Shown: positions 1,437 through 55,885 of the stretch, piece by piece
Position numbering within the stretch: position 1 is the stretch's first letter
Layout: each line of letters opens with the position of its first letter
IMG/VR virus record: IMGVR_UViG_3300033056_000001
Location: 1 to 64,000 of that record
Length of the DNA stretch: 64,000 nt
Direction: 5' to 3' (one strand)
Source: a virus
Position numbers and translations under genes: made by a program
Notes under the pieces: model-generated
Seen by the model: the letters and a program-made list of their open reading frames with translations, nothing else
The model's database searches: none
What the model was told of the DNA's origin: nothing

Positions 1437-1442
1437 AGATAC

Positions 1443-1467: not shown

Positions 1468-1473
1468 TTTGCG

Positions 1474-1501
1474 CAAAAGAAAAGACGCCGTTTCAGGCGC
1501 C
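1474..1501 (-). terminator. Intrinsic terminator after the replication-relaxation gene
   Basis: Minus strand reads GGCGCC-tgaaac-GGCGTC followed by TTTTCTTTTG. Overlaps the stop codon. Confidence 0.55.
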
Positions 1502-2139
1502 TAACCAATTCGTATAGATATTCCATCGTTCTTAGGTTTCGGCTTCGTGGCCGCCAATAACTCGGATACGTCTTTCGTTTGAATAATACGCACGTACTCG
1601 CTGCTCACGTTGTATTTATGGTCGGCGATAATCCAAACGGCGGGGAATCGTTTTACCTTAAACGGTAAGCACTCACGCCATAGCTCCGACCGTGCGAACG
1701 CCTCATACCTGGCGATTTTCTGCTGCATGACTCTCGCCGTGTACCGCGTATTCTGAACCTCCGCGAAGAAGGCGGAACCGCGCCAGAACATGCAAATGTC
1801 CGGCCGTACATCTACGTTAGGGAATTGCGACTCAACAGCGAAATGTTTCAGATCCTTCTCGCCGTGGCCGCGCAGTTGAAGGTAGAAATCGGTGATTTTA
1901 AGGAAGTGGTCGACTTTTTGTCCGTTGGTTTTAATGCGGGCAGGTTTCGGAAAGTATACGTAAGGCTGACGGTTAGTATCAGCCTCGACATATCCACGAT
2001 CGCGCAGCCGTTTTAATACTTCGTTTGCATGGCGGATAGGATTCTTTGTGTCGGCGAAAAAGAGGGCCGCCAGCTGGTCACGCGTCATTGCGCGGAATTG
2101 TTGAAGCGTAGAGATTATTTCGAGGTCACGTTTTCTCAT
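1501..2139 (-). CDS. Replication-relaxation family protein (wHTH N-terminus)
   Basis: 212 aa. N-terminal pattern RDLEIISTLQQFRAMTRDQLAALFF...LKRLRDRGYV is typical of the Replic_Relax family. Overlaps the upstream FtsK-like gene by 4 nt, a pairing known from Gram-positive plasmids and phages. Confidence 0.65.
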   Translation of the reverse strand: MRKRDLEIISTLQQFRAMTRDQLAALFFADTKNPIRHANEVLKRLRDRGYVEADTNRQPYVYFPKPARIKTNGQKVDHFLKITDFYLQLRGHGEKDLKHFAVESQFPNVDVRPDICMFWRGSAFFAEVQNTRYTARVMQQKIARYEAFARSELWRECLPFKVKRFPAVWIIADHKYNVSSEYVRIIQTKDVSELLAATKPKPKNDGISIRIG

Positions 2140-3347
2140 TCGGATTCATCCTCCCAGTTTTCATCGTCTTGCCCGAAGATATTATCGGTGAGTTTTTTGA
2201 GGTCCGGCTCGGCGGCCGGCGGAGTTGGCGTCACATTCGTCGCAGACTTAGGCGCTCGCCAGTAAACGTTCAAAAGTTCCTTCGCCACGTCTAAATCGAG
2301 GTATGGCGCTTTGAGCTCGGTATTCTCGCCGCGGAAGTCGATTATAAACTGACCGCTGCTTTTAAGCTTCTCGGCGCCTGGCGTTTCGAGTATCTCGGCG
2401 CTAGTTTGATTGCGTACTTTAAAGCCCATACTTACGTCAAGACAATCACGAAGGGTAGTATCGATAACTTTATGCGAAGGGCGCTGCATCGATAGAATGG
2501 CGTAAATTCCAAGCGCACGGCCCATCGCTACCAATTCGATTAGCTTGGCGTTGAGCTCTTTGTCATCGCGCAGCATTACGTATTCGTCGATACATAATAG
2601 AATATAAGGTTTGCGGTGTTCTTTCGGCAGTTTGTCGATGTGGTCAATTCCGAAGACTTCGAGTAGTTTGGTGCGGTCGATCATTTCGGCGTGCAGTTCG
2701 TCAAGAATACGATTGGCGCCGCGTTTGTCGCTTTCGAGTGCTTTCGTATGTTGGATATTACGGAACAGGTGAAACTCCGACCGTTTACAGTCGATGAGGT
2801 ACAACGAAAGCTCTGACGGCTTTTTCGTAAGGATGAGCGTTGTTAGTATAATGCGTAGAATTGAAGACTTACCGGAGCCAGGGACGCCGCCGATGACCGC
2901 ATAAGGATTCGTAACCATATCATACGTAAACCATTTGCCGCGCTTATCTTTGCCGCAGACAATCGGCATTTTCTTGCCGTGGATCTCACGCATGAACTCG
3001 CCGTAGTTATAGTCGATTGTGTTTTGGTTGCTGCGGTTAAATATCGTAAGCGTGAAAACCTTATCTTCGCCGGATAACTCGATGTTGCCACCGAACGACT
3101 GCCGGAATACATACTCGCGCTTACGGAGCTCATCTGGCGAGTATCCCAACGGAATTGAAAACACATACGTAAATGTTTCCGATTCAGTGTCCGGCCGCAT
3201 ATCAAGTAGGCGAGGGTACTGGCGAATTTGCTTGCCGCCGCTGTTTTTATGTGCGATGTAAATGCCGCCTGCATTGAACGCCCGTTTTAACGCTCTACGC
3301 GCCATTCTCAGCGTTTTCTTTTGCGCTAGATAGTTACGTATACTCAT
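2136..3347 (-). CDS. FtsK/SpoIIIE-family DNA translocase ATPase
   Basis: Walker A GGVPGSGKSS, Walker B ILLCIDEY, and the FtsK-type motif GRALGIYAILSMQRPS. Start moved to Met58 of ORF 2136..3518: GGAGG lies 7 nt upstream and an ATGA overlap joins it to the preceding membrane-protein gene. Confidence 0.85.
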   Translation of the reverse strand: MSIRNYLAQKKTLRMARRALKRAFNAGGIYIAHKNSGGKQIRQYPRLLDMRPDTESETFTYVFSIPLGYSPDELRKREYVFRQSFGGNIELSGEDKVFTLTIFNRSNQNTIDYNYGEFMREIHGKKMPIVCGKDKRGKWFTYDMVTNPYAVIGGVPGSGKSSILRIILTTLILTKKPSELSLYLIDCKRSEFHLFRNIQHTKALESDKRGANRILDELHAEMIDRTKLLEVFGIDHIDKLPKEHRKPYILLCIDEYVMLRDDKELNAKLIELVAMGRALGIYAILSMQRPSHKVIDTTLRDCLDVSMGFKVRNQTSAEILETPGAEKLKSSGQFIIDFRGENTELKAPYLDLDVAKELLNVYWRAPKSATNVTPTPPAAEPDLKKLTDNIFGQDDENWEDESE

Positions 3348-3661
3348 CCGACTAACCTCCATAAGAACGCCATTAGAAAGCCGAAGAATGTGACGGGCAT
3401 TAAGACGTTGGCGGCACCGGCGATTAGTTCCGCAGCTTGGGACGCGCCTCGGCTGGCGAAGTGATTTTCGAGAAGGTTGGATATTATCGCGGTCAAGCCG
3501 ACTGCTGATACGAGCCAATATGCGCCTGCAATTTCGGGAGACATGCTGAAAAATCCCGCCCAGGTGAATCCGAAAGAGTAGATCGGTGCGCTAATTTTTC
3601 GTGGCTCATGACGATAGTTTCCAGACATAAAATCGTTGAATTTAATCGTTTGTACTTTCAT
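3344..3661 (-). CDS. Membrane protein, first gene of the FtsK-like operon
   Basis: 105 aa with 2-3 hydrophobic helices (FGFTWAGFFSM, AYWLVSAVGLTAIISNLL, VLMPVTFFGFLMAFLWRLV). GGAGGT RBS. Translationally coupled to the downstream gene. Confidence 0.5.
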   Translation of the reverse strand: MKVQTIKFNDFMSGNYRHEPRKISAPIYSFGFTWAGFFSMSPEIAGAYWLVSAVGLTAIISNLLENHFASRGASQAAELIAGAANVLMPVTFFGFLMAFLWRLVG

Positions 3662-3931: not shown

Positions 3932-4156
3932 ATGTGGGGCTTGGGTAAGAAACGAACGAAGCTTGGTCGATTTTTAGATAAGAAAGGTCGTACGCAGAAT
4001 GAACTTGCGAAAGCTGCAGGCGTAAATAAGGAGACGATTAGCCGAGCGTGTAGCGATCCGAACTATTCGCCGACGGTCAAGACGTTGAGTAAAATTATGA
4101 AGGCGTTGCGGAAGTTAGATCCGAATGTAAAGGCGGAGGACTTTTTCGATTTATAG
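3932..4156 (+). CDS. XRE-family helix-turn-helix regulator
   Basis: 74 aa. HTH segment RTQNELAKAAGVNKETISRACS. GGAGGT RBS. Divergent from the FtsK-like operon across the iteron array. Confidence 0.7.
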   Translation: MWGLGKKRTKLGRFLDKKGRTQNELAKAAGVNKETISRACSDPNYSPTVKTLSKIMKALRKLDPNVKAEDFFDL

Positions 4157-4159
4157 ACA

Positions 4160-4205
4160 AAAAAAATAAGCGCCCACCCTACGAAAAGGTGAGCGCCGTT
4201 TTGTT
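4160..4205. terminator. Bidirectional intrinsic terminator
   Basis: A-tract, then GCGCCCACC-ctacgaaaa-GGTGAGCGC, then TTTTGTT. Serves the convergent genes 3932..4156 (+) and 4204..4620 (-). Confidence 0.6.
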
Positions 4206-4620
4206 AGCCGAGCATTGCCGAAATCATTACGTATTGTTTCTGGTCGCAGTGTATATGCAGTTTACACTCAACGCCATCTTCGCCGACCAGATAAACGAAG
4301 GCTTTCGATGTGTCTTTACGTCGTCCGCCGACCGCAGCGCCAGCGATTCCGCCTAACGGGCCTGCTACGATTGTCCCCGCGATTGCTCCGCCAGCCGCCT
4401 TGCCTGCGCTACGTTTACCGGATTTCGCCCATTCGATTCGCGCCAACTGCCAGCGCTTTTTATCTGCGAAAGGTAACTCCGTAATAACTTCGCCTGGCTT
4501 ATCGCCTTTGACTAGGTTTGCATTGCGAATCGGCACCGGAATGTGCTTATCTGTTAATACGTGTCCTCCGCTCAAAATATTAAGTTGAATGCGCTGACGA
4601 AACAATTCTTTCCAACCCAT
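4204..4620 (-). CDS. Glycine-zipper membrane protein, function unknown (stand-alone unit)
   Basis: 138 aa. Central AGKAAGGAIAGTIVAGPLGGIAGAAVGG glycine-zipper segment. GGAGGAG RBS. Own TATAAT box upstream and own terminator downstream. Confidence 0.5.
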   Translation of the reverse strand: MGWKELFRQRIQLNILSGGHVLTDKHIPVPIRNANLVKGDKPGEVITELPFADKKRWQLARIEWAKSGKRSAGKAAGGAIAGTIVAGPLGGIAGAAVGGRRKDTSKAFVYLVGEDGVECKLHIHCDQKQYVMISAMLG

Positions 4621-4656
4621 CGAAATCTCCTCCGTTTTAGTTTCCGTTATTTTCTA

Positions 4657-4686
4657 ATTATACTATATGTACGGACGAAAGCGAAA
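4657..4686 (-). promoter_or_regulatory. Putative sigma-A-type promoter for 4204..4620
   Basis: The minus strand has a perfect TATAAT (plus 4657..4662) with a weak -35 (TTCGCT) 17 nt upstream. Located after the holin stop. Confidence 0.35.
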
Positions 4687-4725
4687 AAAGATTCGCAATC
4701 GTCGAAAGTTTTTACTTCGTGCTGG

Positions 4726-4908
4726 CTAGTCGTCTCTGTTATTCGGATTATGTTTCGTGAAGAAGTACGCAGTAATCGCGGACAATGCGCCAATTAGCGC
4801 CGTGATAATCGTGTTGACTGTTTCGGAATCGTCGCGAAACATAAACATCGCCGTACCGAGTAAGCCGAGCACGCCGATAGATATTACGTATTCGAATCGG
4901 AATTTCAT
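4726..4908 (-). CDS. Holin-like small membrane protein
   Basis: 60 aa, two TM helices and a charged C-terminus (KHNPNNRDD). Start overlaps the endolysin stop (TAATG). Confidence 0.55.
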   Translation of the reverse strand: MKFRFEYVISIGVLGLLGTAMFMFRDDSETVNTIITALIGALSAITAYFFTKHNPNNRDD

Positions 4909-6116
4909 TACTTCGCCTCCTTATAGTACCAGCCTTTCTCGTTAAGGAATCGCTTAACTTTAACGAGGTCCAGTCCTCTAGCCGTAATTGTAGCGCTCGG
5001 GTTTCCGCCTTTCGCAAGGTTTAAAGCGCCGTCTAGTCCGATCGACTTCAAGAACGTACGGAACTCCGCTTCCATTGCCGGATTCAAGCCGCCTGTCTTT
5101 AACGTAACTGCGATTGGCTCAACGTCTTTCATTTGGACAAATCCGCCAGGAACCGCCCATGCTGCAGTCGTATATCCGTAAACGCTAAACACCGTGCCTG
5201 CTTTTAACGTTTTAGTCTTTTCGCTAATGTCAGCGTTTTTATATACGCCAGTAGCTACTTTCGCTTTAACTTGAACAGCGTATTTATCGCCAAGAGATGT
5301 TACTTTCGGCATTTCCTTCGCTGGCTCAACTTTCGCAGGTTCAGCCGGTTTAGTTTCGACTGCTTTCGCTTTTGCGTCAATTAAGTCGGCTAGTTTTGCG
5401 ATTGTTTTAGGTCCAGCGATTCCGTCTGCGTCTAAACCGTTCGCTTTTTGGAACGCCTTGATTGCCGCGACTGTTTTAGTGCCAACCACTCCGTCTACAG
5501 TTCCGAGGTCAAAACCAAGCGAAGTTAGTTTCGCCTGTACATCGATTACCGCTTCACCTTTCGAACCTAATTTAACGATAGTGCTTCCGGCTTCAACTTC
5601 GACTTTGATTTCGGAAACGTTTCCGCCTTTAACTTTTGCGATAACTTCCGCTTTGAATTGCGCCCAGCCTGCCGGATCCACAACGTAGAAATGCGGGCAG
5701 TCTTTGCCCGTTACGTCGTAGTGACGAATCATATGCGTAGACGGATCGATTCCGTGACGTTTACACACATCGGCTGCTAGTTCGACCGTGTTAGCGCGCA
5801 TTTTCGTGAAGACGCCGTCGCTGTTTACGCACATTTCGATTCCGATTGAGTTTGCGTTACGGCAGCTTGGATGAACGTATTTCTTAGCGCCAACGTGGTA
5901 GCCGAGTTCATTTTCGGGTAGTGCGCGTACGATTTGCGTACAGTCTACGAGATAGTGAGCGCTAGCAGAACGGTCGGTACTGTTGAAGTAGTTACGGTTA
6001 GCCATTGCGTTTGCGCCTTTACCTTCGTTTGCTGTCCAGTGAATTACGAGATACTTCGGATCTATTTTACGTCCTGGTCGATTATGACCGCTGATTAATT
6101 TTTCAGTGATATTCAT
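4908..6116 (-). CDS. Endolysin: N-acetylmuramoyl-L-alanine amidase (Amidase_2/PGRP) with PG_binding_1 and a C-terminal wall-binding region
   Basis: N-terminus VIHWTANEGKGANA...SAHYLVD...GIEMC...HYDVTGKDCP carries the zinc amidase motifs. The middle GSKGEAVIDVQAKLTSLGFDLGTVDGVVGTKTVAAIKAFQKANGLDADGIAGPKT is a peptidoglycan-binding domain. Confidence 0.9.
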   Translation of the reverse strand: MNITEKLISGHNRPGRKIDPKYLVIHWTANEGKGANAMANRNYFNSTDRSASAHYLVDCTQIVRALPENELGYHVGAKKYVHPSCRNANSIGIEMCVNSDGVFTKMRANTVELAADVCKRHGIDPSTHMIRHYDVTGKDCPHFYVVDPAGWAQFKAEVIAKVKGGNVSEIKVEVEAGSTIVKLGSKGEAVIDVQAKLTSLGFDLGTVDGVVGTKTVAAIKAFQKANGLDADGIAGPKTIAKLADLIDAKAKAVETKPAEPAKVEPAKEMPKVTSLGDKYAVQVKAKVATGVYKNADISEKTKTLKAGTVFSVYGYTTAAWAVPGGFVQMKDVEPIAVTLKTGGLNPAMEAEFRTFLKSIGLDGALNLAKGGNPSATITARGLDLVKVKRFLNEKGWYYKEAK

Positions 6117-6212
6117 TTCATCGCTTCCCTTCGTTCAATTTTAATCGTATAATAAGCGTAAGTGTCGGCGCCGCAATACTTTGGAGAGAGAGGCGCGGCA
6201 GTCCGACCGCAA

Positions 6213-6464
6213 TTAAAAAACGATTGATACTACGATTCCGCCTATTCCGATGAATAATGAAACCGCGATACCAATCGCCCATTTAATCGTTGTAGATAAT
6301 TGCGAGATGTCTCTTGCGTTTTCATTTGCGAGGGCTATTCCTTGTTCCGCTTTCTTATCAGCCTCTTCCGCTTTACTCCGCGATTCCATCGCCCAGTCTA
6401 ACTTCGTTTCCAGACGAGCCAATGCGATTGCTACGTCAAACTCTCGATTAGTTGGTTCGGACAA
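6213..6464 (-). CDS. xhlA: XhlA-like lysis-associated membrane protein
   Basis: Coiled-coil N-terminus plus a C-terminal TM helix (WAIGIAVSLFIGIGGIVVSIVF), like PBSX XhlA. Start set at an internal TTG preceded by AAGGAGGTG. The longer ATG at 6548 lacks an RBS and overlaps the promoter of the divergent gene. Confidence 0.65.
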   Translation of the reverse strand: MSEPTNREFDVAIALARLETKLDWAMESRSKAEEADKKAEQGIALANENARDISQLSTTIKWAIGIAVSLFIGIGGIVVSIVF

Positions 6465-6549
6465 TTTGCGCACCTCCTTTTTAGGGGATTTCTTACTATG
6501 ACTTAAGTTCCAAAAACATATATTTTCTGTATAATATCTTGTAAACATT

Positions 6550-6558
6550 TGGTATAAT
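6550..6558 (+). promoter_or_regulatory. Extended -10 promoter (TGgTATAAT) for the O-antigen-ligase-like gene
   Basis: TGGTATAAT lies about 65 nt upstream of ATG 6621, and a strong TGGAGG RBS lies 5 nt before the ATG. Confidence 0.5.
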
Positions 6559-6620
6559 GTATAGCTATGAGCATTTTTTCATATACTAATTAAATTTAAT
6601 GTAAATACTTTGGAGGAAAA

Positions 6621-7937
6621 ATGAAAATATTAGTTATATTTATCTTGTACTTTTTGATTTTTGCATTTTGGAACATCTTTTTTGCCAAAAGAGATAAATT
6701 TAAAAATTTGTATTTAGTATTTTTCTTGTTCTTATTTAGTTTCTACCTATCTACTCCGTATTATCAAATAAATCTAGATGGTTCAAGGGAAAGCGCATCG
6801 TTACATACTGTTTTCGTAGCCTTGATTGTTTGCTTGTTTTTTGTCGCAAATAAAAGGGTTCTTAAACCAGGAAAAGAACTGATATTATTTATCCCTATAT
6901 TCTTCCAAGCTTTAATTACTGTGTTATACTTTAAGTTTAGTAATATTGCGGATGTCTTTGGTATTTTAAATGCTTATATAAGTATTTATCTGATTATCCT
7001 TATATATCGGAGTGTACCCAATATAGATATTAACAAATTTTTATACAGTATAAACTATCTAGCTTTGGTAAACGGAATTTTAGGTATGGCTCAATACATA
7101 ACGGGCAAAAGTTTATTGATCGGAAGTTTCAATAGTTCAATTCTTTATACAGAAGGTATGGTAGATATAAAACGTGTCATAGGATTAGCAGGAGCTAATA
7201 ATGCTGCCGGTACTTTTAGTGCTATACTTTTCGGCGTTGTCTTGTATAATTTACTAAAGAAGCGAGATATTCTAAGCTTAATAACCTTAATTATAACGAC
7301 TGTATTTGCTGTTTTAACTTTCACTAGGGTTGGCTATGTCGCTATTTTTGCAGAAGTTTTAATTTTTTGGTTTTTATACAAACCGAAAACAAAGAGAACT
7401 CAGTTTACAAAAATAATTTCGTTTTGTTTTGGCCTTCCTATTATAGTAATCGTCACTAGTAGTTTCGTTTCAGGCCTAATTAATAAATTATTTACGGAAC
7501 GTGGTGATACGTCCTCAGAAAGATTTAGGCAATTCCAAAGGGCATATGATTATGTTATTTCTAACAATTGGTTTTCAGGAATAGGAATAGGTCAATATAA
7601 ACCATATCTACTCAATAACTACCGAATAGCTGATTTACCAATACACTCTCAATACTTAAATGTTTTAGCAGAACAAGGAGTACTTATCTTAATTGTTTTT
7701 GTCCTCTTTAATTTCACGATAATTTACAAGATACTTAGAAACAAACACATAGATAAAGATTTAAAAGTACTAACAGTGGCGATTTTTTCGGCAAACTTTA
7801 TGTGTTCTAACTTTAACCCCAACCAATTTTATTACATGAATAACGTGCTTTACTACATTATTATGCTTGGTTTATATTTTTACGCGAAAAGATATAAAGT
7901 AGCGCCTTTGGATAAAGAGTTAAAAATAGCAGCATAG
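6621..7937 (+). CDS. O-antigen ligase/polymerase-like (Wzy_C family) polytopic membrane protein
   Basis: 438 aa with about 10-12 TM helices. Wzy_C-like motif region: FTRVGYVAIF ... PIHSQYLNVLAEQGVLILIV. Very AT-rich (roughly 25-30% GC by eye) compared with its neighbours. Opposite strand, with its own promoter and terminator. Confidence 0.75.
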   Translation: MKILVIFILYFLIFAFWNIFFAKRDKFKNLYLVFFLFLFSFYLSTPYYQINLDGSRESASLHTVFVALIVCLFFVANKRVLKPGKELILFIPIFFQALITVLYFKFSNIADVFGILNAYISIYLIILIYRSVPNIDINKFLYSINYLALVNGILGMAQYITGKSLLIGSFNSSILYTEGMVDIKRVIGLAGANNAAGTFSAILFGVVLYNLLKKRDILSLITLIITTVFAVLTFTRVGYVAIFAEVLIFWFLYKPKTKRTQFTKIISFCFGLPIIVIVTSSFVSGLINKLFTERGDTSSERFRQFQRAYDYVISNNWFSGIGIGQYKPYLLNNYRIADLPIHSQYLNVLAEQGVLILIVFVLFNFTIIYKILRNKHIDKDLKVLTVAIFSANFMCSNFNPNQFYYMNNVLYYIIMLGLYFYAKRYKVAPLDKELKIAA

Positions 7938-7961
7938 ACGTTATTGTCTATGCTTTTTTAT
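7931..7961. terminator. Intrinsic terminator between convergent genes
   Basis: Perfect 9-bp hairpin AGCATAGAC-gttatt-GTCTATGCT followed by TTTTTT. An A-tract on the other side allows bidirectional function. Confidence 0.7.
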
Positions 7962-7967
7962 TTACCA

Positions 7968-9506
7968 TCAGTTACCGGTTATCATTCGGTCATCAACAAA
8001 TATACTACCGACTTGAAGCCAACCGCGAACAACATATTTACTTCCAGCCGTTCCAACCTCTGAAAGAGTTCCTACATTTTCAACGTAAGTGTCGTACCCT
8101 GTTATAGATGATGGTTTTGCGTCGTTCATATGTCTTGTAGTCTTTTTAGCGAAAAAGTGGATATTCCCAACGTATCCTGTAGTGTTGACATCTTTAATGA
8201 TATTACCTTGATTAGAGTTTGACGTAGAATAAACTCCGAACTTGTTATTAACCGATGTTTTAGTCGTATCAATCGATTCTATAATAATATTTTTAAGGAG
8301 GATGTTTGTTGGTTGGGAAATACCATTTGAATCTAATAAAATACCATGCCCTTTAGTTGCTGTAGACGTATCATTTTTACCGTTTGTACCCTTAACTGTA
8401 TTGTCTGTAATAACTAACCTATCCGAACCAGCCAGAACCACAATACCGTTATTTGAAGCGTTTAATATTTTATTACTGCTTGCAACGGTTCCCTTTGTAT
8501 TATACAGAGTTAATGCACCCATACTTCCGTAAGAACTACTTTCGTCTACTATATTTCCGCTAACGATATTATCATCTGACTGCCAAATTTCAATTTGATG
8601 GAATCGATTATTCTTAGACGTGTTTCCGATAATCGTATTTTGATAAGCTACTTTACCGCTGCCCCCGAATGATGTAATCCCTTCTTGTCCGTTACCTTCA
8701 CAGTAATTTCCGATAGCTTTACAATATCGAGCGCCTTTGCCTAACGTCGAGTTGTAACCGAATAAGATACCCTGACCGCCGTTATTCTTAACTCTGGGAT
8801 TGTTTAATACGAATACGCGAGTTCCGCTTAATACGTTTATGTGTGCGCAGTCGTTTTGTTCTACAGCGTAACCTCCAAACTCGGCAGGGTTATCGAAGAT
8901 GCTGTTAGTAATCAATATATTATCGCTATCGTTGTCGACAATAATACTGCTTTTTGTGATGTTGTTGAACTCACAGTTAGATACGTAGGAATTTTTCGCA
9001 CCGTAATAGTAAACACCAACAACGCCAATGTTTGTGAATTTACAACGCTCAAACGAGACTCTTTCTTTACCGTCCGCTTGAACTACGAAATTGTATCCAT
9101 CAAAATTAATTCCGATAAATAAGTTTCTATTCATAGCGTCCATGAATTTAGTCGTACCGCTGCCTGCTATCTTCGATTGGTTTCCGACAAACGTAAGATC
9201 ATCATAAGAAGTTATTTTCGTTTTTATATTGTATGTTTTATTATTTTTTAGAGTAACAATACGCTTACCATCGGTATTTGCTTTGTTTACAGCACGTTGA
9301 AATCTAGCCGAATCATCAACCTCGGGAGCAACGATAGGGAATGATTCCAAATGTACGGAACTCTCAGCCAAAACATCAATTTTATCTGCATTCTCTTTCG
9401 CCTTTGTGTCGAGTTTCGTAAAGTTATTATTTAACTCCGTCCGTTTGAAATAATCCGTCTCCGCCCATATATCCATTCCTAGATTCGGTGTTTTATTCGA
9501 TGCCAT
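7968..9506 (-). CDS. Tailspike / second receptor-binding protein with right-handed parallel beta-helix (pectate-lyase-like depolymerase fold)
   Basis: 512 aa. The N-terminus MASNKTPNLGMDIWAETDYFKRTELNNNFTKLD is homologous to the N-terminus of the adjacent fibre. Repeated PbH1-like units are present (ILITNSIFDN, VKNNGGQGILFG, IGNYCEGNGQEGITSFG, IIGNTSKNNRFHQIEIW, VSGNIVDES, ILNASNNGIVVLAG, ITDNTVKG). GC is lower than in the tail genes. Confidence 0.75.
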   Translation of the reverse strand: MASNKTPNLGMDIWAETDYFKRTELNNNFTKLDTKAKENADKIDVLAESSVHLESFPIVAPEVDDSARFQRAVNKANTDGKRIVTLKNNKTYNIKTKITSYDDLTFVGNQSKIAGSGTTKFMDAMNRNLFIGINFDGYNFVVQADGKERVSFERCKFTNIGVVGVYYYGAKNSYVSNCEFNNITKSSIIVDNDSDNILITNSIFDNPAEFGGYAVEQNDCAHINVLSGTRVFVLNNPRVKNNGGQGILFGYNSTLGKGARYCKAIGNYCEGNGQEGITSFGGSGKVAYQNTIIGNTSKNNRFHQIEIWQSDDNIVSGNIVDESSSYGSMGALTLYNTKGTVASSNKILNASNNGIVVLAGSDRLVITDNTVKGTNGKNDTSTATKGHGILLDSNGISQPTNILLKNIIIESIDTTKTSVNNKFGVYSTSNSNQGNIIKDVNTTGYVGNIHFFAKKTTRHMNDAKPSSITGYDTYVENVGTLSEVGTAGSKYVVRGWLQVGSIFVDDRMITGN

Positions 9507-9529
9507 TTAATCGACTCCCTTCGTTGTTA

Positions 9530-9563
9530 AAACGCAAATAAGCCCGCAAGTTAATGCGAGCTT
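9530..9563 (-). terminator. Intrinsic terminator after the tail fibre gene
   Basis: Minus strand reads AAGCTCGCA-ttaact-TGCGGGCTT followed by ATTTGCGTTTT. Overlaps the fibre stop codon. Confidence 0.5.
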
Positions 9564-11586
9564 ACTCTGCGATAGGTTTTAACGATTCAATTTCCGCTTT
9601 AAGTGCCGAGATTTCCGCATTTGACGCCTCAATGTGCGCTTCAAATTTCGCAGATAACTCCTGAACCGATTTAATAAGTGGCGCAATAAACTCTTCGTAA
9701 CCAACCGTTAATACGTCGCTACCACCGTTTTCTTTATGGTCTTGGAATCCGCCGAACTCAGCGCCCGTTTCGTCCATAACCGCTTTAACTTCTTGCGCGA
9801 TAACGCCTTGATGATAGCGAGTGCGCTTCTTGCTGCCGTCGTGATCGTTTACGATGATTTCGCCAGTTTCTTCGTTAACAACGAGATAGTCATCGCGATA
9901 GTCCCAACGGAAATCAACCGGACGAATCTTCTTAATGAAATCGAGTCCAAGCTGCGTATCACGAATGTCCGCCTTGTCGCGCATGTCTGAACGGTTCTGA
10001 ATAGCGCCGTAAGCATAAACGGTAGTACCCGTTGTCCCGAGTTGAATTTGATTGTCGCCACTAATACGGCTGTCAAATCCGATTGCAGTAGATCCGCTTG
10101 CTCCTACGGTGTTTGTGCCGTCTTGGTTATAGCGCATTGCTCCGTACCCTAATGCGGTATTCTTGTCGCCAAAACTTACGTTAATGCCTGACAATGCGCC
10201 AATCATTACGTTAAAGTCGCCGACTAAGTTACGTCCCGACCACGTTCCAAGCGCCGTGTTATTCTGACCACTCAACGAGTTCTCCATCGAATAGTTTCCG
10301 ATACTCGTATTGTTGTCGCTGACTTTAAGGTTCGCCGAGTTATTCGAATACCATGAGCTCGTTACTGATCCGCTTGTATTGTTATCGATAGGCGCTGTAA
10401 TTTCGAACGTGTCATTTAGAACGTTGGAGATGACGTATTGATTCTCCTCGACCGTTTTTAAGTTAGCGCCTGACGTCAGTAACAACGAAACAAGGTAACC
10501 GTTTTGTAAGCCATGCGCCGGAATAGTTACCGTAATCTTTTTGCCGGACCATACGTAAGTGCCAGATCCGCTCCAAGCGATTTTATTCTTGCCGTCGACT
10601 GTCATATCGGATTGTAAGTTGTACAGCGAGTTATAGCCCATTGATACGTTGTTTTTTGCTTTCGTAATGTTCATTGCGCTATATGAACCGACTGCCGTGT
10701 TATTGTCGCCGACTGTATTTAACAGCGCATTGTTACCGATTGCAGTAACGTTGTTAATGTCGTATTTCGTGTAGTCGACAATCTGGCCGGTTAAATCTAA
10801 CGGAGCCACGCCGCCGATTGCGTTAACGCCAAGCGCCGTATTATAGCTTCCGTTCTTCGTACACTGCATCGAGTTACGTCCGATTGCTAAGTTGTGATGT
10901 CCGTTGATGTTATAACGAAGGGCGTTGATTCCGATACCTACGTTACGAGTTGCGTTAAATGAATCTGACGTGTCCGTTAACTTCGTATTTAGAAGCGCCT
11001 CGTTTCCGATTGCGATGTTATGTTTCTCTCCGCTAAGTGCGGAAGATAACGCATCCCAACCGATTGCGATGTTGTTGTACGAACCGACTGCGTTCTTCAT
11101 CGCGTAGCCGCCGATTGCGATATTTTTGTAGAATTTATTGGATCCGTCATAACTCGGAAATGTTGGCGCCTGTGCTGCCGCTCCGAGTCCAGCAGAAATA
11201 ACGCCGTGATTCATTCGCATGACGTTCGCAAAGCTGGCGTCTAAGTAAGCGCCGTTATTTAAAAATCTTCCGTTCACGTATTTGTTTTTCGTAGGTAACG
11301 AGTTTACTAAGTACGTTTTCCCGCCGAGGTCAACGACTTTATCGGCGAAAGTAGATTCGATCGTATTAAATACCGCCGAATCGTTCGCTACTCCGTCACC
11401 TACTGCGTTAAATTCCCGCAAGTTAATAATGCCGTCGGTCTTCTTCGCTAATGCGTCAAAACCGGCTGACACTACCGTTGCGTGAGCGTCGATCTTATCG
11501 AAGTTATCATTAAACTCCTCGCGGTCAACATTATCGATTGGCGCCCACGTATTTAGATTCAAATTCGGTGTTTGATATGTCGCCAT
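9562..11586 (-). CDS. Tail fibre with YadA-head-like repeats and a C-terminal Peptidase_S74 intramolecular chaperone domain
   Basis: 674 aa. Many N(T/I)A(I/L/V)G..A repeats (NIAIGGYAM, NIAIGWDAL, NIAIGNEAL, NVGIGINAL, NLAIGRNSM, NTALGVNAI, VTAIGNNAL, NTAVGSYSA...). C-terminus SDMRDKADIRDTQLGLDFIKKIRPVDFRWDY...GVIAQEV...LTVGYEEFIAPLIKSVQEL plus a coiled coil is typical of auto-cleaving S74 chaperones. Confidence 0.85.
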   Translation of the reverse strand: MATYQTPNLNLNTWAPIDNVDREEFNDNFDKIDAHATVVSAGFDALAKKTDGIINLREFNAVGDGVANDSAVFNTIESTFADKVVDLGGKTYLVNSLPTKNKYVNGRFLNNGAYLDASFANVMRMNHGVISAGLGAAAQAPTFPSYDGSNKFYKNIAIGGYAMKNAVGSYNNIAIGWDALSSALSGEKHNIAIGNEALLNTKLTDTSDSFNATRNVGIGINALRYNINGHHNLAIGRNSMQCTKNGSYNTALGVNAIGGVAPLDLTGQIVDYTKYDINNVTAIGNNALLNTVGDNNTAVGSYSAMNITKAKNNVSMGYNSLYNLQSDMTVDGKNKIAWSGSGTYVWSGKKITVTIPAHGLQNGYLVSLLLTSGANLKTVEENQYVISNVLNDTFEITAPIDNNTSGSVTSSWYSNNSANLKVSDNNTSIGNYSMENSLSGQNNTALGTWSGRNLVGDFNVMIGALSGINVSFGDKNTALGYGAMRYNQDGTNTVGASGSTAIGFDSRISGDNQIQLGTTGTTVYAYGAIQNRSDMRDKADIRDTQLGLDFIKKIRPVDFRWDYRDDYLVVNEETGEIIVNDHDGSKKRTRYHQGVIAQEVKAVMDETGAEFGGFQDHKENGGSDVLTVGYEEFIAPLIKSVQELSAKFEAHIEASNAEISALKAEIESLKPIAE

Positions 11587-11598
11587 CTCACCGCCTCC

Positions 11599-12612
11599 TT
11601 AATCGAATTCTAATCGTATTCCTAAATCGCTAAATTTCAGTACGTCCGTATCTGCTTGCGTCGTATTCTCTAATCTCGACCAGGTTGCCGGAGCCTGCGG
11701 ATATGAAGCCTGCAACGTTTCCCACGAATAGCTATTTGCGTCCTCGAATCGCATGTCGACCGCTTCAACCTCCGACCACGGCACGAATGAATATCCGAAA
11801 ACAGGCTTGATGTGCGCCGGTATGACTTCCTGGACTGCGTGCTTAACGTCCGGCATATTCTTCGGCACACCTCGCCGCTCAGTAATCTTGATGTTTAAAG
11901 AGTTTGCCGAGTTTCGTTCGGTTACGTCCGATTTATAAAACGAGCCCACAATCGACTTCATGGTCGCCAACGTTGACGTATTTGTTCCGCGTAGCTTTGC
12001 GTTAATAAGATTTCGTCTTGCTTCATTCGAACGATTCGGTACGTACTCTATGCCGAGAATGTTTTCCCAACGGTCGAGCGTGACGTCATTACTAACGACG
12101 AAGAATTGATCGAATAAACGATTTAACTCCGCTCGTACTTTTGTAATCTCGTTAGCTTCCGTTTGAATAATTTTCATAGCTTCGCGAATGTCGCCGTAAT
12201 ACTTCGGCAAGTAATCTTTCATTGCGTAAAGGTTGTCGCGGTCAGTTCGATACGCTGTCGCTGTGGCCGTTGCAGTAACCGAAGCGCTAACTGTTTTGTA
12301 AACGATGACTCGACCGGTAGCTTTCGCTGTTGCAGTGGCGCTACCTTTTGCGTATTTAAGAAGTCGAAACTGCTTCGTCGAAATAGTCGATTTTGCCAGC
12401 ACGCTAGCCTTGACGTATCGGACAGTGCGAGTATTAGCAACAGTAGACGCCGCTCCCGAAGAAGCCGCGCCTGTTTTCATTCGCTTGATGATTTTCGCTT
12501 GTACTTTAGCCGAACCGGTAAGGTTTCCTTTAGAACGATAAATAGCCCGCGCTTTACCTTGCGTGGTTGCTTTCGCCTGCAGCGTGTTTATGCCAAGCGT
12601 TATAATCGCCAT
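11599..12612 (-). CDS. XkdU-like baseplate/fibre-associated protein (DUF2313) with low-complexity N-terminal extension
   Basis: The C-terminal 210 aa starts MKDYLPKYYGDIREAMKII...LDRWENILGI, a DUF2313-type sequence. The N-terminal ~125 aa is an Ala/Thr/Lys-rich repeat. Its position after the baseplate J gene matches PBSX. Confidence 0.7.
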   Translation of the reverse strand: MAIITLGINTLQAKATTQGKARAIYRSKGNLTGSAKVQAKIIKRMKTGAASSGAASTVANTRTVRYVKASVLAKSTISTKQFRLLKYAKGSATATAKATGRVIVYKTVSASVTATATATAYRTDRDNLYAMKDYLPKYYGDIREAMKIIQTEANEITKVRAELNRLFDQFFVVSNDVTLDRWENILGIEYVPNRSNEARRNLINAKLRGTNTSTLATMKSIVGSFYKSDVTERNSANSLNIKITERRGVPKNMPDVKHAVQEVIPAHIKPVFGYSFVPWSEVEAVDMRFEDANSYSWETLQASYPQAPATWSRLENTTQADTDVLKFSDLGIRLEFD

Positions 12613-12625
12613 TTAATACACCGCC

Positions 12626-13012
12626 TTACGCTAACGTGATTGTAACGTCGCCCGCTGCTACTTTTAGTTGGTCCGTAGACGAAATAGTTTTCGCTGTTGT
12701 TAGTACGCCGTAATAAAGCATGTTGCCCGCTGTTGCTGCGTCATAGATAGCGAAATGTGTGACGGTTCCCCAGCCGGCAGTTGCGACCGGAAATAGTACG
12801 TCTGCCGAGTTCGAGCTCGCTCCGTTTGAAGGTGCTGCGAAAGCCATCGACTGACGAGCGTATGCGCCGCCTGTAACTTCTGTTCCTGTTGCTGCGTCTG
12901 TAGGATCGCTAGTAAATAACGCCATGTAGACCGTTGCTGGCGCTGTATATGCTTGACCACGTAAGGTTGCGTTAACCAACGCGTTTTCTAAATAATCGCT
13001 CATTGCTGTCAT
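12626..13012 (-). CDS. Conserved phage tail-associated protein (function unknown)
   Basis: 128 aa. The pattern LRGQAYTAP..VYMALFTSDPTD..TGTEVTGGAYARQ...FP.ATAGWGTVTHFAIYDA..GNMLYYG recurs in many prophage tail modules (from memory). Confidence 0.5.
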   Translation of the reverse strand: MTAMSDYLENALVNATLRGQAYTAPATVYMALFTSDPTDAATGTEVTGGAYARQSMAFAAPSNGASSNSADVLFPVATAGWGTVTHFAIYDAATAGNMLYYGVLTTAKTISSTDQLKVAAGDVTITLA

Positions 13013-44757: not shown

Positions 44758-45299
44758 TTCGAAATCAACTCCTCGTTAATTAAGTACGCTAATCCCAAAG
44801 CCGCTGCGTCCGATTCGTCATCGCAAGCAAACTCGCCTTTGTAACCAGTAATGGTTCGAACCGAAGCTTCAATTTCTTCTTTCGTTGCAACTCCCGAACC
44901 AACTACGATATTCTTCATATTCGACTGTGGAATGCCGAGGTGTATTTTCCGCTTGCCTTTACGGTCGACTGTAACGAATTGCGAAAACTCTAGTCCGAGA
45001 AACTCAACGGCCCTCGCACACGCTGCCCAAGCGCTAAGAACCGGATAATTCTGTTTCGATGATTGACCGTGAAAGTCTTCGCGAGTTACGATATCGATGC
45101 CTTTTCCGATGTGATTCGATATAAAAGAAACGGCCCACGCATAGACTAATTCGTGCCGTATTGCGTGGCTTAGTTTTGTATTTGGTTTAACGTGACTCAC
45201 TGCGATGATTTTCGGTTTGTTGTCCCGAACCTCAATCAAACATAGGCCGGGAGAGCTGAGACTTGTATCAAATGAGAGTATCCTAGTAATCGTGGGCAT
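44754..45299 (-). CDS. RuvC-like Holliday junction resolvase
   Basis: Catalytic acidic residues in RuvC order: ILSFDTS (Asp), TREDFHG (Glu), DDESDAAALGLAYL (Asp/Asp). Confidence 0.65.
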   Translation of the reverse strand: MPTITRILSFDTSLSSPGLCLIEVRDNKPKIIAVSHVKPNTKLSHAIRHELVYAWAVSFISNHIGKGIDIVTREDFHGQSSKQNYPVLSAWAACARAVEFLGLEFSQFVTVDRKGKRKIHLGIPQSNMKNIVVGSGVATKEEIEASVRTITGYKGEFACDDESDAAALGLAYLINEELISK

Positions 45300-46203
45300 C
45301 TTTTACCCTCCTTAAAAATTCTCCGAACTGCGACTTAGTATTATTCTTATATCCATAAGTCATATGGAAACTTTTATGGCACCTTCTGCATAACGTAGCG
45401 CCATTGGAAACATCGAATCTTAATTCTTCTTTTGCGTCATAAGATTCTATATGATGAGCAACCATGATTTCCTCAGATATACCACACTTTACACAAGTAT
45501 TATCATCACGCTTTTTAACATGCCTCGCCCATTTACGAATAGGTCCGTCAGCACCTCTACCTAGCCTTCTTTGTCTTTCTGTTCTCTCACTGTTCCAATT
45601 ATGATGATTTTCTCCTTTTCGCTTTTCTGATGAACACTCTTTACATCTGTTCCCGTTAAGAAAACTTTTGAAGGTAATTTTTGATTTATTGCCGCAACTA
45701 CAAATGTAATTTAATTTAGCGTGATTGTTCGTGTACGTCTTATCCAAAAGAATGCATCCTGCGGAGGAGAAGTATGAAGATACAAAACTATAATCGTATG
45801 CTAATTTTTCAGCTACTTTAGATACGCCACACGCCTTACATCTTTTACCTGTTTTGAAATCAGATAATGTTATCTTTGAAGAATTACCGCAAGAGCACCG
45901 GTATCTCATAGCTGTGTGGTTGTTTTCGTAATTATCTTCAAGTAATTCACACCCTCCGTTTACAAACACTTCTTTCGCCTGATCTATTGTTAATTTCTTC
46001 AGCGCAGCGACCTTTTTGGCGCCACAATGTCTACATCTTATTCCTCGTTTGAATCTGTGCGTTTGTGTATAAGCTTCGTTCCCACAAACACATTTATATC
46101 GTAACTTTTGATTACAGCCCAAGTATTCATCTTCCAATAACTCGCAACCTTCCTCGGAAAACATGGTTTTTAGTTCATCTAGGGTATATTTACCCGCCAT
46201 CAA
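45283..46203 (-). CDS. HNH endonuclease with three tandem zinc-ribbon repeats
   Basis: Three ~48-aa repeats (GCELLEDxY....LxYxCxCGN...T...F..G.RC..CG) followed by HNH (CVKCG...HHI...N...LCRRCHKSFH). AT-rich. Confidence 0.75.
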   Translation of the reverse strand: MMAGKYTLDELKTMFSEEGCELLEDEYLGCNQKLRYKCVCGNEAYTQTHRFKRGIRCRHCGAKKVAALKKLTIDQAKEVFVNGGCELLEDNYENNHTAMRYRCSCGNSSKITLSDFKTGKRCKACGVSKVAEKLAYDYSFVSSYFSSAGCILLDKTYTNNHAKLNYICSCGNKSKITFKSFLNGNRCKECSSEKRKGENHHNWNSERTERQRRLGRGADGPIRKWARHVKKRDDNTCVKCGISEEIMVAHHIESYDAKEELRFDVSNGATLCRRCHKSFHMTYGYKNNTKSQFGEFLRRVKDAHDY

Positions 46204-53710: not shown

Positions 53711-54322
53711 TTAAAGCGCAACCAAGTAGTCGGTATGATTGCCGAATTGCTTTGAATCGAATTTGCCTGCCAGCTTTTCGAGTTTGCGTGTAACAGTGTA
53801 ATGATGCATTCCTAAACTTTTCGCGATTGCCAACGCTGAAGATTTAGGTTGTGTCCGGTAAGCTTCAACGATTGCCGTCGTTGTTGCATCCGAATCTTTC
53901 GTAAGGAAGTCGATCAGTTGCCTCTGGTCGGCTTCTTTTATTTCCGTAACTTCTTCCGCCAAGTTGAAGTCGTCTGCGATTTCGAAAGTTGCCGCTTCCG
54001 AATCATCTTCGTTTTGTTGCCACGTTGTTTCTCTTTCGCTTAGTTTCTTTTTCTTACGATAAACATCCGTTCTTGCTCTCGCTACACTGGAAAGGTAAAA
54101 TTTGATGAAGTCCGTTGAGCCGTCGTATTTGCCGATACAACGTAGTAACGTGTCTTCGTAGATTGCGTGAACTTCGTGCTTATCTGCTCGAATCGATTTG
54201 CCGATCTTTTCGAACGCTCTAGCACCTTTCGCAATTACCTCCGCGTAGATTTCGTTGAATACTTCGTCTGAACCAGAAGTTTGATACGCGATTACTAAGC
54301 TATTTAATTTTTTCATTTCCAT
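53711..54322 (-). CDS. Sigma-70-family (ECF/phage-type) sigma factor
   Basis: Region-2-like FNEIYAEV...DFIKFYLSSVARARTDVYRKKKK and region-4 HTH SSALAIAKSLGMHHYTVTRKLEKL. AGGAGGAA RBS. First gene after the aimP-like terminator. Confidence 0.7.
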   Translation of the reverse strand: MEMKKLNSLVIAYQTSGSDEVFNEIYAEVIAKGARAFEKIGKSIRADKHEVHAIYEDTLLRCIGKYDGSTDFIKFYLSSVARARTDVYRKKKKLSERETTWQQNEDDSEAATFEIADDFNLAEEVTEIKEADQRQLIDFLTKDSDATTTAIVEAYRTQPKSSALAIAKSLGMHHYTVTRKLEKLAGKFDSKQFGNHTDYLVAL

Positions 54323-54581: not shown

Positions 54582-54683
54582 TCAGCCTCCGCGTGGTACA
54601 TGAGCAGAAGCATCACCGCCGAACAGGATAAGGGCTCCTACAATGATCACCGCAGCAACTACAAATGGTAAATACTTTTTCAT
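54582..54683 (-). CDS. aimP: AimP-like secreted signalling pre-pro-peptide (33 aa), not in ORF track
   Basis: MKKYLPFVVAAVIIVGALILFGGDASAHVPRGG. Basic N-terminus, hydrophobic signal segment, C-terminal ...HVPRGG. The GAGGAGG RBS overlaps the stop of the AimR-like gene. Confidence 0.7.
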   Translation of the reverse strand: MKKYLPFVVAAVIIVGALILFGGDASAHVPRGG

Positions 54684-54697
54684 AAGAAATTTCCTCC

Positions 54698-55885
54698 TCA
54701 TTTAGCGAATTGCCCGTATACCGCCTCTGCCACAGATTTTAGAGTTTCGGATTTTCTTAGCTGTTCTAACGGTAGTTGCGCAAAGAATAAATCACCGACT
54801 TTCAAGAATTGGCTTAACGATTTAAACAGCATATCACTGTCGTTAGTGGCTAACCCTTTGTAATAGAAGTAGTACATCGCTTCTTCCGCTTCACTAACTT
54901 CCTTTTCGATAATCTCTAGGGCTTTACCTTTATCGCCCCATTTTGCCTCATAATGCGCAATTACTACCGGTACGCCTTCCGTAACCTTTACTCCATGGTG
55001 CGCGTCTAAAAACGGGAGGAACCATCGTTCTAACTCGTCAGCAAAACCTTCGTAATTAGCTTCGCGGTAAACATCGATCGCCTGCTTCGTATTTAGCACG
55101 CTCAGCTCGTAGCTTTCGAATGTAAACGACGTTCCTAATAGATAATACGAATTCGCTTTAAATATCGCACAAATATCCTGTGAAATATTTTTTGTTGCGT
55201 GCTCTCTTGCCTTTTCTACGTCTGCCAATACGTATAAAAAGCGTTTCCCTAATAGATCATTGAGCCTTACCTCAAAAGACATTCTGAAAAAGCAATCTTT
55301 CAAATTATACACGTCTTGTTCAATTTCATCACATATCCTAGACATAGTATGTAGATAAGCTGCTGATGTTGAAAGTATTCTATAACATACGTTAGCCTCT
55401 ACTAAGTTTAATAATAGTTTCATCTCACTGTCGTTTGTAGACACTTTTCTGACTTTATCTAACATTTCTTTATTTTTTATTTCTCCAGCTTCGTAGCTGG
55501 ATATCATTCCGTAAAGAGCACCCCAACGTTTTAAATTTTTATTTGTTGAAGTATCAACCTTTACTTTAATATAGTCATTTAAGACATCTAAATTTTTGTT
55601 TAGAGATAAGTACTCCATCGCAGCTTTTATATTTTCAGGTAACTCTAATTTGTATGCCCAATCTATAAGTTGAACATCGTCCTTAAATAAACTTCTTGAT
55701 ATTTTATAGAGTTTACAAAAACCAGGCTCCACTCCTTCATATAGGTATCTTCTCATAGTTCTAACATCTACTTCTGCAATTCTAGCCAAATCCTTAACCG
55801 GTATATTTTCTTCCAAACAATCCAACATTGTTTCAAGTGCGTTCCCGATCAATCGCAACACCCTTTCGAAAGTGCCTGCCAGCAT
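54698..55885 (-). CDS. aimR: AimR-like arbitrium receptor / transcription regulator (N-terminal HTH plus TPR-like helical repeats, RRNPP-type)
   Basis: 395 aa. HTH IPVKDLARIAEVDVRTMRRYL. All-helical body. The C-terminus YYFYYKGL...FLKVGDLFFAQLPLEQLRK resembles SPbeta AimR (from memory). The true start may be an internal TTG near 55852, preceded by GAAAGGG. Confidence 0.8.
   Translation of the reverse strand: MLAGTFERVLRLIGNALETMLDCLEENIPVKDLARIAEVDVRTMRRYLYEGVEPGFCKLYKISRSLFKDDVQLIDWAYKLELPENIKAAMEYLSLNKNLDVLNDYIKVKVDTSTNKNLKRWGALYGMISSYEAGEIKNKEMLDKVRKVSTNDSEMKLLLNLVEANVCYRILSTSAAYLHTMSRICDEIEQDVYNLKDCFFRMSFEVRLNDLLGKRFLYVLADVEKAREHATKNISQDICAIFKANSYYLLGTSFTFESYELSVLNTKQAIDVYREANYEGFADELERWFLPFLDAHHGVKVTEGVPVVIAHYEAKWGDKGKALEIIEKEVSEAEEAMYYFYYKGLATNDSDMLFKSLSQFLKVGDLFFAQLPLEQLRKSETLKSVAEAVYGQFAK

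Follow-up and report, generated by a model that had tools for sequence, protein, structure and literature searches.

A putative oligosaccharide polymerase gene shared together with a tailspike domain in a temperate myovirus, probably of Priestia megaterium

Why does a phage carry, at the border between its receptor-binding and lysis genes, one gene of very low guanine-plus-cytosine content (GC) that encodes a polytopic membrane protein and runs against its neighbors? The question is raised by the first 64,000 nucleotides of the IMG/VR virus record IMGVR_UViG_3300033056_000001 (the window), in which a wzy-like gene is the sole + strand gene within a - strand run that reaches from ~1.5 kb to the window end at 64 kb. 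An initial annotation had read the gene as a recently acquired, autonomous O-antigen ligase/polymerase-like moron of a Firmicute phage, and had proposed a profile search and a windowed GC scan, both of which were run here. With moderate confidence, we regard lysogenic conversion of the surface polysaccharide by the phage Wzy as the most likely function of the gene. The intact open reading frame (ORF) begins with ATG and encodes 438 amino acids (aa).

6621..7937, + strand: wzy-like gene; 438-aa polytopic membrane protein of the Wzy_C family, putative oligosaccharide repeat-unit polymerase

The profile search matched the protein to Pfam Wzy_C (PF04932) at 56.4 bits (E 3.9e-15), well above the curated gathering cut-off of 31.7 bits, over aa 222-361 and profile positions 2-149 of 149. 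The family assignment proposed from the signatures RVGYVAIF (aa 236-243) and IHSQYLNVLAEQGVL (aa 341-355) was thus borne out, as was the polytopic character of the protein: hydropathy gave 12 hydrophobic segments, and an AlphaFold model built with 20 homologues (predicted local distance difference test score, pLDDT, 80.7; predicted template modelling score, pTM, 0.84) showed 13 long helices. The best fold match of this model in the Protein Data Bank (PDB) was WaaL (7tpg_B; E 7.4e-5, template modelling (TM) scores 0.54/0.57, 14% identity), followed by the SEDS polymerases FtsW and RodA. Neither the family nor the fold match therefore led to an unrelated transporter family, the outcome named beforehand as speaking against the assignment. 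As far as the model goes, likeness to WaaL and SEDS is expected for a Wzy_C/GT-C-like fold, and the fold by itself cannot tell a ligase from a polymerase. When the Wzy family alignment was run as a profile against PDB sequences, nothing was found at E <= 1; the fold search alone gave a match.

Across 20 sequences, R185, R236, R294, R301, H342 and an NFNPN motif were invariant, and the invariant Arg and His residues fall in loops of the model (aa 162-192 and 282/283-353). When the positive-inside rule is applied to the helices of the model, both conserved loops, with R185, R294, R301 and H342, are predicted to face outward. The subfamily is small and discrete: of 1.84 billion representatives, 63 clusters reach E <= 1e-30, scores fall off sharply after these, and in the species-representative genome collection 8 species have a member. 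No family was found for the protein in PHROGs (E <= 0.01) or NCBIfam, tblastn gave no match in 50,697 phage records or in the plasmid collection, and none of the 66 pattern matches in an IMG/VR scan was confirmed as a relative.

The gene contexts of the cellular homologues bear on whether the protein is a polymerase or a ligase. These homologues, found in Bacillota that include Heyndrickxia, Terribacillus and Sporolactobacillus, are 41-51% identical over their full length and carry the same invariant residues. All six cellular contexts examined (L004, L005/L006, L007, L016/L017, L018 and L019; Heyndrickxia, Terribacillus and four other contigs) were Wzx/Wzy capsule or exopolysaccharide (EPS) loci, in each of which the homologue was the only polymerase candidate. 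The loci contain Wzz/CpsC, the kinase CpsD, the phosphatase CpsB, a Bac_transf initiating transferase, GT4/GT2 glycosyltransferases and a Polysacc_synt flippase, and some add glycerophosphotransferases, hexapeptide acetyltransferases and adjacent LCP ligases, the last in two of them. The phage copy is detached from any biosynthetic locus. Since its homologues occupy the polymerase slot of Wzx/Wzy loci, the most plausible reading of the phage protein is a Wzy repeat-unit polymerase and not a ligase; of the ligase/polymerase-like label the family was correct, and the ligase option is disfavored by context.

A ligase of the WaaL/PglL/WsaB type (an oligosaccharyltransferase), which would take a completed glycan off undecaprenyl diphosphate and attach it to a lipid, a teichoic acid or a surface/S-layer protein, is improbable on these contexts. 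Pfam Wzy_C also includes ligases, the only significant solved-structure match is the ligase WaaL, and the NCBI name of the homologues is 'O-antigen ligase family protein'. However, the homologue fills the single polymerase slot in every Wzx/Wzy locus examined, with separate LCP ligases nearby in two, and a WaaL match of TM ~0.55 at 14% identity is what fold-level kinship would give. No lipopolysaccharide (LPS) core locus was seen among the homologue contexts, and the Bacillota contexts examined in detail were all capsule/EPS loci. The phage host would be a monoderm bacterium, and to our knowledge a lipid A-core acceptor is absent in this host type, which argues against a ligase, as does the much larger size of the S-layer O-oligosaccharyltransferases of Bacillaceae.

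The wzy-like gene did not arrive by itself. The windowed scan confirmed the contrast in base composition that had been noted by eye: the GC of wzy is 0.300 (0.278 at third codon positions) against 0.449 for the rest of the window; the wzy value is the lowest in the window and corresponds to z = -5.2 vs all 1317-bp windows outside the cassette defined below. The low-GC block extends past wzy to ~9420, taking in most of the adjoining tailspike gene (GC 0.376). The gene is therefore an autonomous transcription unit but not a solitary moron, being one half of a tailspike+wzy cassette; autonomy of transcription stands, and acquisition as a lone gene does not.

6487..9420: low-GC accessory cassette, 2,934 bp, GC 0.334, comprising promoter region, wzy, terminator and the C-terminal part of the beta-helix tailspike gene
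7968..9506, - strand: beta-helix tailspike, 512 aa, putative polysaccharide depolymerase (Pfam Beta_helix; right-handed beta-helix model)
4908..6464, - strand: lysis cassette flanking the insertion point, with an XhlA-like gene at 6213..6464 and an amidase endolysin gene at 4908..6116

As annotated initially, wzy lies on the opposite strand between receptor-binding and lysis genes, with the Beta_helix protein gene on its right and XhlA and the endolysin on its left. The closest Wzy homologue (89% aa identity) was found in a prophage of P. megaterium (L001), which is of another type than the window phage, a siphovirus type with Sipho_tail, Prophage_tail and tape-measure genes. Its layout at the same junction is nevertheless alike: a beta-helix protein (- strand), wzy (+ strand), then XhlA and amidase (- strand). 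The two genomes have 2,773 bp in common (window 6591-9355, 80.7% identity), a stretch that takes in wzy and the terminator and encodes the last ~460 aa of the tailspike; the N-terminal anchors differ between the phages. Upstream of this shared DNA just one 19-nt block with an extended -10 is conserved, and perfectly so. The cassette borders are bracketed by two independent comparisons, one with L001 (6591-9355 plus 6540-6558) and one with a sister phage (L024, 6486/9421) described below.

Between the window and L001, wzy shows a ratio of non-synonymous to synonymous substitution rates (dN/dS) of 0.07 at dS 0.79; in the tailspike part the synonymous sites are saturated and the non-synonymous difference (pN) is 0.11. 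Hence both genes are under purifying selection. On these comparisons the wzy-tailspike linkage has outlasted a long divergence in two unrelated phage backbones. The data lend no support to a recent acquisition, since the sole other copy, that of L001, is already diverged (wzy dS ~0.8, tailspike synonymous sites saturated).

Just upstream of wzy, L001 has an EpsC/WcaB-like hexapeptide acetyltransferase gene (L001 9178-9714, + strand) that is lacking in the window phage. Its product is 46% identical to an acetyltransferase encoded beside the Wzy homologue in a Terribacillus capsule locus (L005), a likeness that speaks for an ultimate origin in a cellular capsule locus. The L001 prophage may both O-acetylate and re-polymerise the glycan.

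The spike half of the cassette looks like a glycan-active enzyme in its model, a right-handed beta-helix behind an N-terminal helix (pLDDT 87.5). By profile and fold it resembles phage spikes (CBA120 TSP3, HK620, the phiAB6 tailspike and the depolymerase of Acinetobacter phage APK16) as well as mannuronan epimerases, carrageenase, glucanases, chondroitinase B and polysaccharide lyases. Residues ~1-50 form the N-terminal anchor, of which the first ~29 aa align at the DNA level with the sister phage and belong to the backbone; residues ~50-512 are the imported cassette part, and over aa 24-512 the protein is 81% identical to its L001 counterpart. No relative of the 512-aa protein was present in the phage collection. 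One cellular homologue, 57% identical, adjoins a CpsBCD/Bac_transf locus. Joint capture of beta-helix and wzy from one cellular locus was considered and rejected, because no beta-helix homologue occurs in any cellular wzy locus.

A second spike gene of backbone GC is found next to the first.

9562..11586, - strand: second tailspike, 674 aa, with an endosialidase-type N-terminal extension and a Peptidase_S74 chaperone domain (phrog_4636, 758 bits)

This protein is 55-60% identical to spike proteins of the B. megaterium phages Mater and Pascal, and the first ~50 residues of the 512-aa spike are 40% identical to its N-terminus. Given this common N-terminus, the phage appears to bear two spikes on one anchor type. 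The anchor motif common to both (MA..TPNL...W...D..R.E.N.NF.K.D) is encoded at 9357-9506 and 11392-11586 (- strand). The same anchor, at 66-86% identity over ~40-50 aa, starts many P. megaterium proteins (P0119-P0133) with unrelated C-terminal enzyme domains (glycerophosphodiester phosphodiesterase, polysaccharide deacetylase, SGNH hydrolase, GH28-like/beta-helix), and these anchor-headed proteins look like a large modular repertoire of receptor-binding enzymes for this phage group.

The sister phage L024 (67.3 kb; NCBI assigns its proteins to P. megaterium) is collinear with the window, with DNA identities of 79% in the tail/baseplate genes, 97.6% in XhlA, 88% from lysis genes to Replic_Relax and 74-98% in the backbone overall. 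Its homology ends at window position 6486, the XhlA-region match running right up to the cassette border, and restarts at 9421, which brackets a replaceable segment of 2,934 bp. In the same segment L024 has the C-terminal part of a different receptor-binding protein (RBP) of 584 aa, which shares the N-terminal anchor, and a polytopic membrane protein of 429 aa with ~10-11 hydrophobic segments and GC 0.335. The RBP had no family match, and the 429-aa protein matched nothing in Pfam or NCBIfam. A diverged Wzy_C was rejected for the latter, as hhalign against the Wzy alignment gave a probability of 0.1 along with the missing family matches; by profile comparison it belongs to a family other than Wzy_C. 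Its UniRef homologues carry the names 'oligosaccharide repeat unit polymerase' and 'O-antigen polysaccharide polymerase Wzy', and the closest cellular one (58%) occupies the only unassigned polytopic slot of a Paenibacillus Wzx/Wzy capsule locus (L025). By gene context and source-given names it is a putative polymerase. Since the RBP and the membrane protein sit at the same breakpoints, the junction in L024 holds another RBP with a non-homologous putative polymerase. The two L024 genes (10001-13171) lie on the late-gene strand, and the 429-aa protein apparently represents a putative repeat-unit polymerase family outside the Pfam and NCBIfam models. In a more distant relative, the B. subtilis phage 268TH007, no opposite-strand gene was found at the tailspike/lysis junction.

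Three phage genomes with two non-homologous polymerase families at the same position suggest a wider idea, which we offer tentatively and hold to be possible though doubtful. The tailspike/lysis junction of Bacillaceae phages would house matched cassettes for attack and self-protection, in which a depolymerase-type RBP domain is combined with a polymerase that remakes the same repeat unit in a spike-proof form, and which are swapped only as pairs among myoviruses, siphoviruses and plasmid prophages. Such a cassette would resemble a toxin-immunity or restriction-modification pair acting on a cell-surface glycan. If true, paired cassettes would be a force that generally drives the diversity of capsules and wall polysaccharides among Gram-positive bacteria.

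How could the gene be expressed in a lysogen? The signals of its own transcription unit, an extended -10 promoter, a ribosome-binding site and a terminator, had been predicted and were all located.

6540..6558, + strand: promoter block TGTAAACATTTGGTATAAT, including the extended -10 TGGTATAAT (6550-6558); 19/19 identical to L001 9897-9915
6612..6616, + strand: ribosome-binding site GGAGG, 4 nt 5' of the ATG at 6621; same TTGGAGGAAAAAATG context in L001
7931..7960, both strands: bidirectional intrinsic terminator between the convergent wzy and tailspike genes (hairpin 7931-7954 plus T-tract)

The conserved block would serve as the wzy promoter; a good -35 element was not found for it, and the leader sequences flanking the 19 nt gave no alignment between the window and L001. 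The leader RNA (6560-6625) had no significant structure (z = 0.36), on which ground a riboswitch or attenuator was dropped. The hairpin at 7931-7954, with a 10-bp stem and a 4-nt loop, overlaps the wzy stop codon and is followed by TTTTTATTT. Its predicted folding energy is -13.6 kcal/mol on the + strand (z = -6.4 vs shuffles) and -13.4 kcal/mol on the - strand (z = -5.6), where the stem has 9 bp. Because it folds on both strands, the terminator is bidirectional and serves both convergent genes. In L001 the terminator is kept with one G-U change.

Late transcripts from the tail genes to XhlA and the endolysin must pass this terminator and ~1.4 kb antisense to wzy. Alternatively, the lysis genes could have their own promoter in the AT-rich 156-bp spacer 6465-6620, in which a consensus scan detected no clear - strand promoter. 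Convergent transcription might switch wzy off in lytic growth.

With its own promoter antisense to the late genes, wzy could be expressed in the lysogen. It is quite unlikely, in our judgement, that the gene has no role in lysogeny and is either a hitch-hiker on the tailspike module or a means of changing the envelope in the lytic cycle that keeps progeny off debris. In favor of such a role, expression in the lysogen is a prediction from the layout, the gene was acquired jointly with a tailspike domain, and the L024 putative polymerase on the late-gene strand would suit late expression there. Yet dN/dS of 0.07 over a long divergence rules out a neutral passenger, and the conserved sigma-A-type promoter, opposite orientation and terminator form the classical layout of a moron and not of a late gene.

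Lysogenic conversion presupposes a temperate phage, and an arbitrium module was found in the window.

54582..55885, - strand: arbitrium module, with aimR at 54698..55885 and a candidate aimP at 54582..54701

AimR (395 aa) scored 185.6 bits in Pfam and 189 bits in NCBIfam against a cut-off of 70. The candidate aimP encodes 39 aa with a signal-peptide-like N-terminus and the ending ...HVPRGG, and overlaps the aimR stop codon by 4 nt. This AimR/AimP module indicates that the phage is temperate. The GC of the module is 0.37, and a sigma-70/extracytoplasmic function (ECF)-like gene of 203 aa (53711..54322) stands at the expected place of aimX.

The phage is a temperate myovirus of ~66 kb whose host is probably P. 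megaterium, so that the earlier call of a Firmicute phage holds and narrows to a Priestia type. This host is suggested by the kin of the 674-aa spike in phages Mater and Pascal, by the N-terminal ~45 aa of the beta-helix protein, which are 66-86% identical to many P. megaterium proteins, by the cassette in common with the P. megaterium prophage L001, and by the syntenic sister genome that NCBI names P. megaterium. B. subtilis phages with genomes of 64-68 kb have terminases that share 57% identity with that of the window phage, and megablast of 4000-12000 and 10000-34000 against the phage and plasmid collections gave no match.

The homologues in Wzx/Wzy capsule/EPS loci, the temperate lifestyle, the purifying selection and the co-travel with a tailspike C-terminal domain are the grounds for reading the cassette as a seroconversion type, and a mechanism may be proposed in four steps. 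Host RNA polymerase would transcribe wzy from its own extended -10 promoter, antisense to the late genes, which would make expression possible in the lysogen. The protein would enter the cytoplasmic membrane with its conserved loops (aa 162-192 and 283-353) outside. There it would use undecaprenyl-diphosphate-linked repeat units built and flipped by a host Wzx/Wzy capsule, EPS or wall-polysaccharide pathway, linking them otherwise than the host polymerase does, by competition or replacement. The altered polymer would be neither bound nor cleaved by the cognate beta-helix tailspike depolymerase; the lysogen would be guarded against superinfection by phages with that spike, and its serotype would change. 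That polymerase and tailspike rely on the same repeat unit would explain their joint inheritance and exchange at the tailspike/lysis junction: the polymerase would be useful only with the right repeat unit, and the spike would ensure entry into hosts that make it.

Another role is rather unlikely in our view but deserves more weight than the ligase or the passenger. The phage Wzy could supply or boost polymerisation with no change of linkage, giving new, more or longer capsule/EPS chains. The lysogen would then be shielded in general from other phages, predators or desiccation, or would gain biofilm traits, with no self-exclusion of a specific kind. The evidence from family and context applies here as well, an inhibitor of the host polymerase was not found in the cassette, and no close chromosomal Priestia homologue was seen, so the host might be without a competing enzyme of the subfamily. 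Mere supply would, however, leave unexplained why the polymerase and a specific tailspike C-terminal domain are exchanged jointly in three phage genomes, and a lysogen that makes capsule would hide the receptors that its own progeny need, except where the paired spike breaks this capsule down.

Several points nonetheless weigh against lysogenic conversion in P. megaterium as proposed here. We infer the host identity, and the backbone GC of ~45-47% lies well above the ~38% of P. megaterium, against 33-40% in the siphovirus-type prophage L001; a phage richer in GC than its presumed host is unusual, and the mismatch would mean either another Bacillaceae host or a recent host shift of the lineage. 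In the protein search P. megaterium was represented solely by the prophage copy, and among the species representatives no Priestia genome turned up. Wzy specificity is not readable from sequence. Both copies of the cassette are old, with synonymous sites near or at saturation, and common descent of a recombination module, instead of functional coupling, could account for part of the linkage. Finally, no conserved small ORF that could encode an Iap-like inhibitor was present on the wzy strand in 6487-7967, where ORFs of 20-45 aa are few and none is common to L001.

To the right of the tailspikes lie myovirus baseplate genes (Mu Gp48-like, Baseplate_J and sheath initiator), and to the left of the lysis genes a helix-turn-helix (HTH) gene on the + strand, FtsK-like and Replic_Relax genes and a ParM-like gene at the window edge. 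Other phage genes encode DNA polymerase A, ribonucleotide reductase, helicase, primase and a C5 methylase. In window 1-3518, the FtsK-like and Replic_Relax genes are followed by the ParM/ALP_N-like gene, which is cut by the window start; its place is taken by a ParA-like gene in the sister genome (within the region L024 16323-19544) and by a tyrosine integrase in 268TH007 (L003 3379-4392). No integrase was found among the window ORFs scanned. Given the partition genes and the lack of an integrase among these ORFs, the prophage may be maintained as a plasmid, and contigs of ~66-67 kb fit a whole replicon. Two further low-GC islands, 41001-42000 (GC 0.356, overlapping the ribonucleotide reductase small-subunit gene region) and 45001-46203 (GC 0.394, overlapping a 306-aa HNH endonuclease/CapR-domain ORF at 45283..46203), may both be mobile endonuclease insertions.

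Phage Wzy is a textbook route of serotype conversion in Gram-negative bacteria, and phage Wzy has recently been shown to rewrite Acinetobacter capsules in an outbreak. In the literature searched, no Wzy or O-antigen ligase gene was reported for Bacillus or Priestia phages, nothing equivalent was described in a Gram-positive Bacillus-type host, and no P. megaterium Wzy-dependent EPS locus was found. The kind of arrangement, a phage Wzy next to a tailspike, is therefore known, but the case of a Gram-positive Bacillaceae phage is apparently new, and its added value is the evidence for pairwise swapping of spike domains and polymerases. If the proposed function is true, surface-polysaccharide types of Bacillaceae would not be predictable from the chromosomal locus alone, prophage polymerases would partly set phage host range and superinfection immunity in this family, and tailspike+polymerase pairs would offer a ready means of matching a depolymerase to a glycan linkage. 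The system is directly testable, as a sequenced P. megaterium strain with the sister cassette exists.

The nearest known systems are the Wzy proteins of Acinetobacter baumannii prophages (WzyPh1, Wzy2Ph), which are encoded next to tailspike depolymerases and for which a change of capsule linkage was proven chemically; identity between unrelated prophages there reaches into the depolymerase C-terminal domain (PMC9241936, PMC13228068). The present case is alike in the temperate phage, in the Wzy beside a tailspike depolymerase, in a target that would be a Wzx/Wzy capsule rather than LPS, and in shared sequence between unrelated prophages that extends into the spike C-terminal domain. It is unlike in that Acinetobacter is Gram-negative, whereas the host here would be monoderm and its polymer LCP-anchored to peptidoglycan or released, and the linkage change here is a proposed one. 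No sequence similarity to the Acinetobacter Wzy was detected (no phage-collection or PHROG match).

In epsilon15 of Salmonella and D3 of Pseudomonas aeruginosa, a phage O-antigen polymerase is accompanied by an inhibitor of the host polymerase; the phage linkage replaces that of the host Wzy, recognition by the phage's own tailspike is lost and superinfection is excluded. The window phage resembles this type as a temperate phage with an independently transcribed polymerase gene adjoining a tailspike on the opposite strand, in a cassette absent from the sister L024. It differs in that epsilon15 and D3 act on the LPS O-antigen with a small inhibitor (Iap in D3), for which this cassette has no candidate, and D3 also has an O-acetylase; no sequence relationship was detected between the epsilon15/D3 Wzy and the phage Wzy here. 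A P. aeruginosa Wzy inhibitor is mentioned in PMC13228068. Cellular Wzy proteins of Bacillota are of the same subfamily but are embedded in complete biosynthetic loci; the phage gene has no such surroundings and lies next to a tailspike, with a promoter and a terminator of its own. With WaaL (7TPG) the phage protein shares the Wzy_C domain and a GT-C-like membrane fold, but at only 14% identity and with homologues in a polymerase context.

Prophage modification of surface glycans is also known from NeuO of CUS-3, a hexapeptide-repeat acetyltransferase of the K1 capsule encoded beside an endosialidase tailspike, and from TarP, a wall-teichoic-acid glycosyltransferase of S. aureus prophages. The GtrABC glucosylation and Oac acetylation modules of P22 and Sf6 are further prophage surface-glycan modifiers (PMC12786184). 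All match the function proposed for the present cassette, lysogenic conversion of a surface glycan that serves as phage receptor, TarP showing the principle in Gram-positive bacteria. As an acetyltransferase gene beside a spike, neuO is reminiscent of the Hexapep gene that precedes wzy in prophage L001. They differ in that they add side groups to an existing polymer, whereas a Wzy would alter the backbone linkage between the repeat units themselves.

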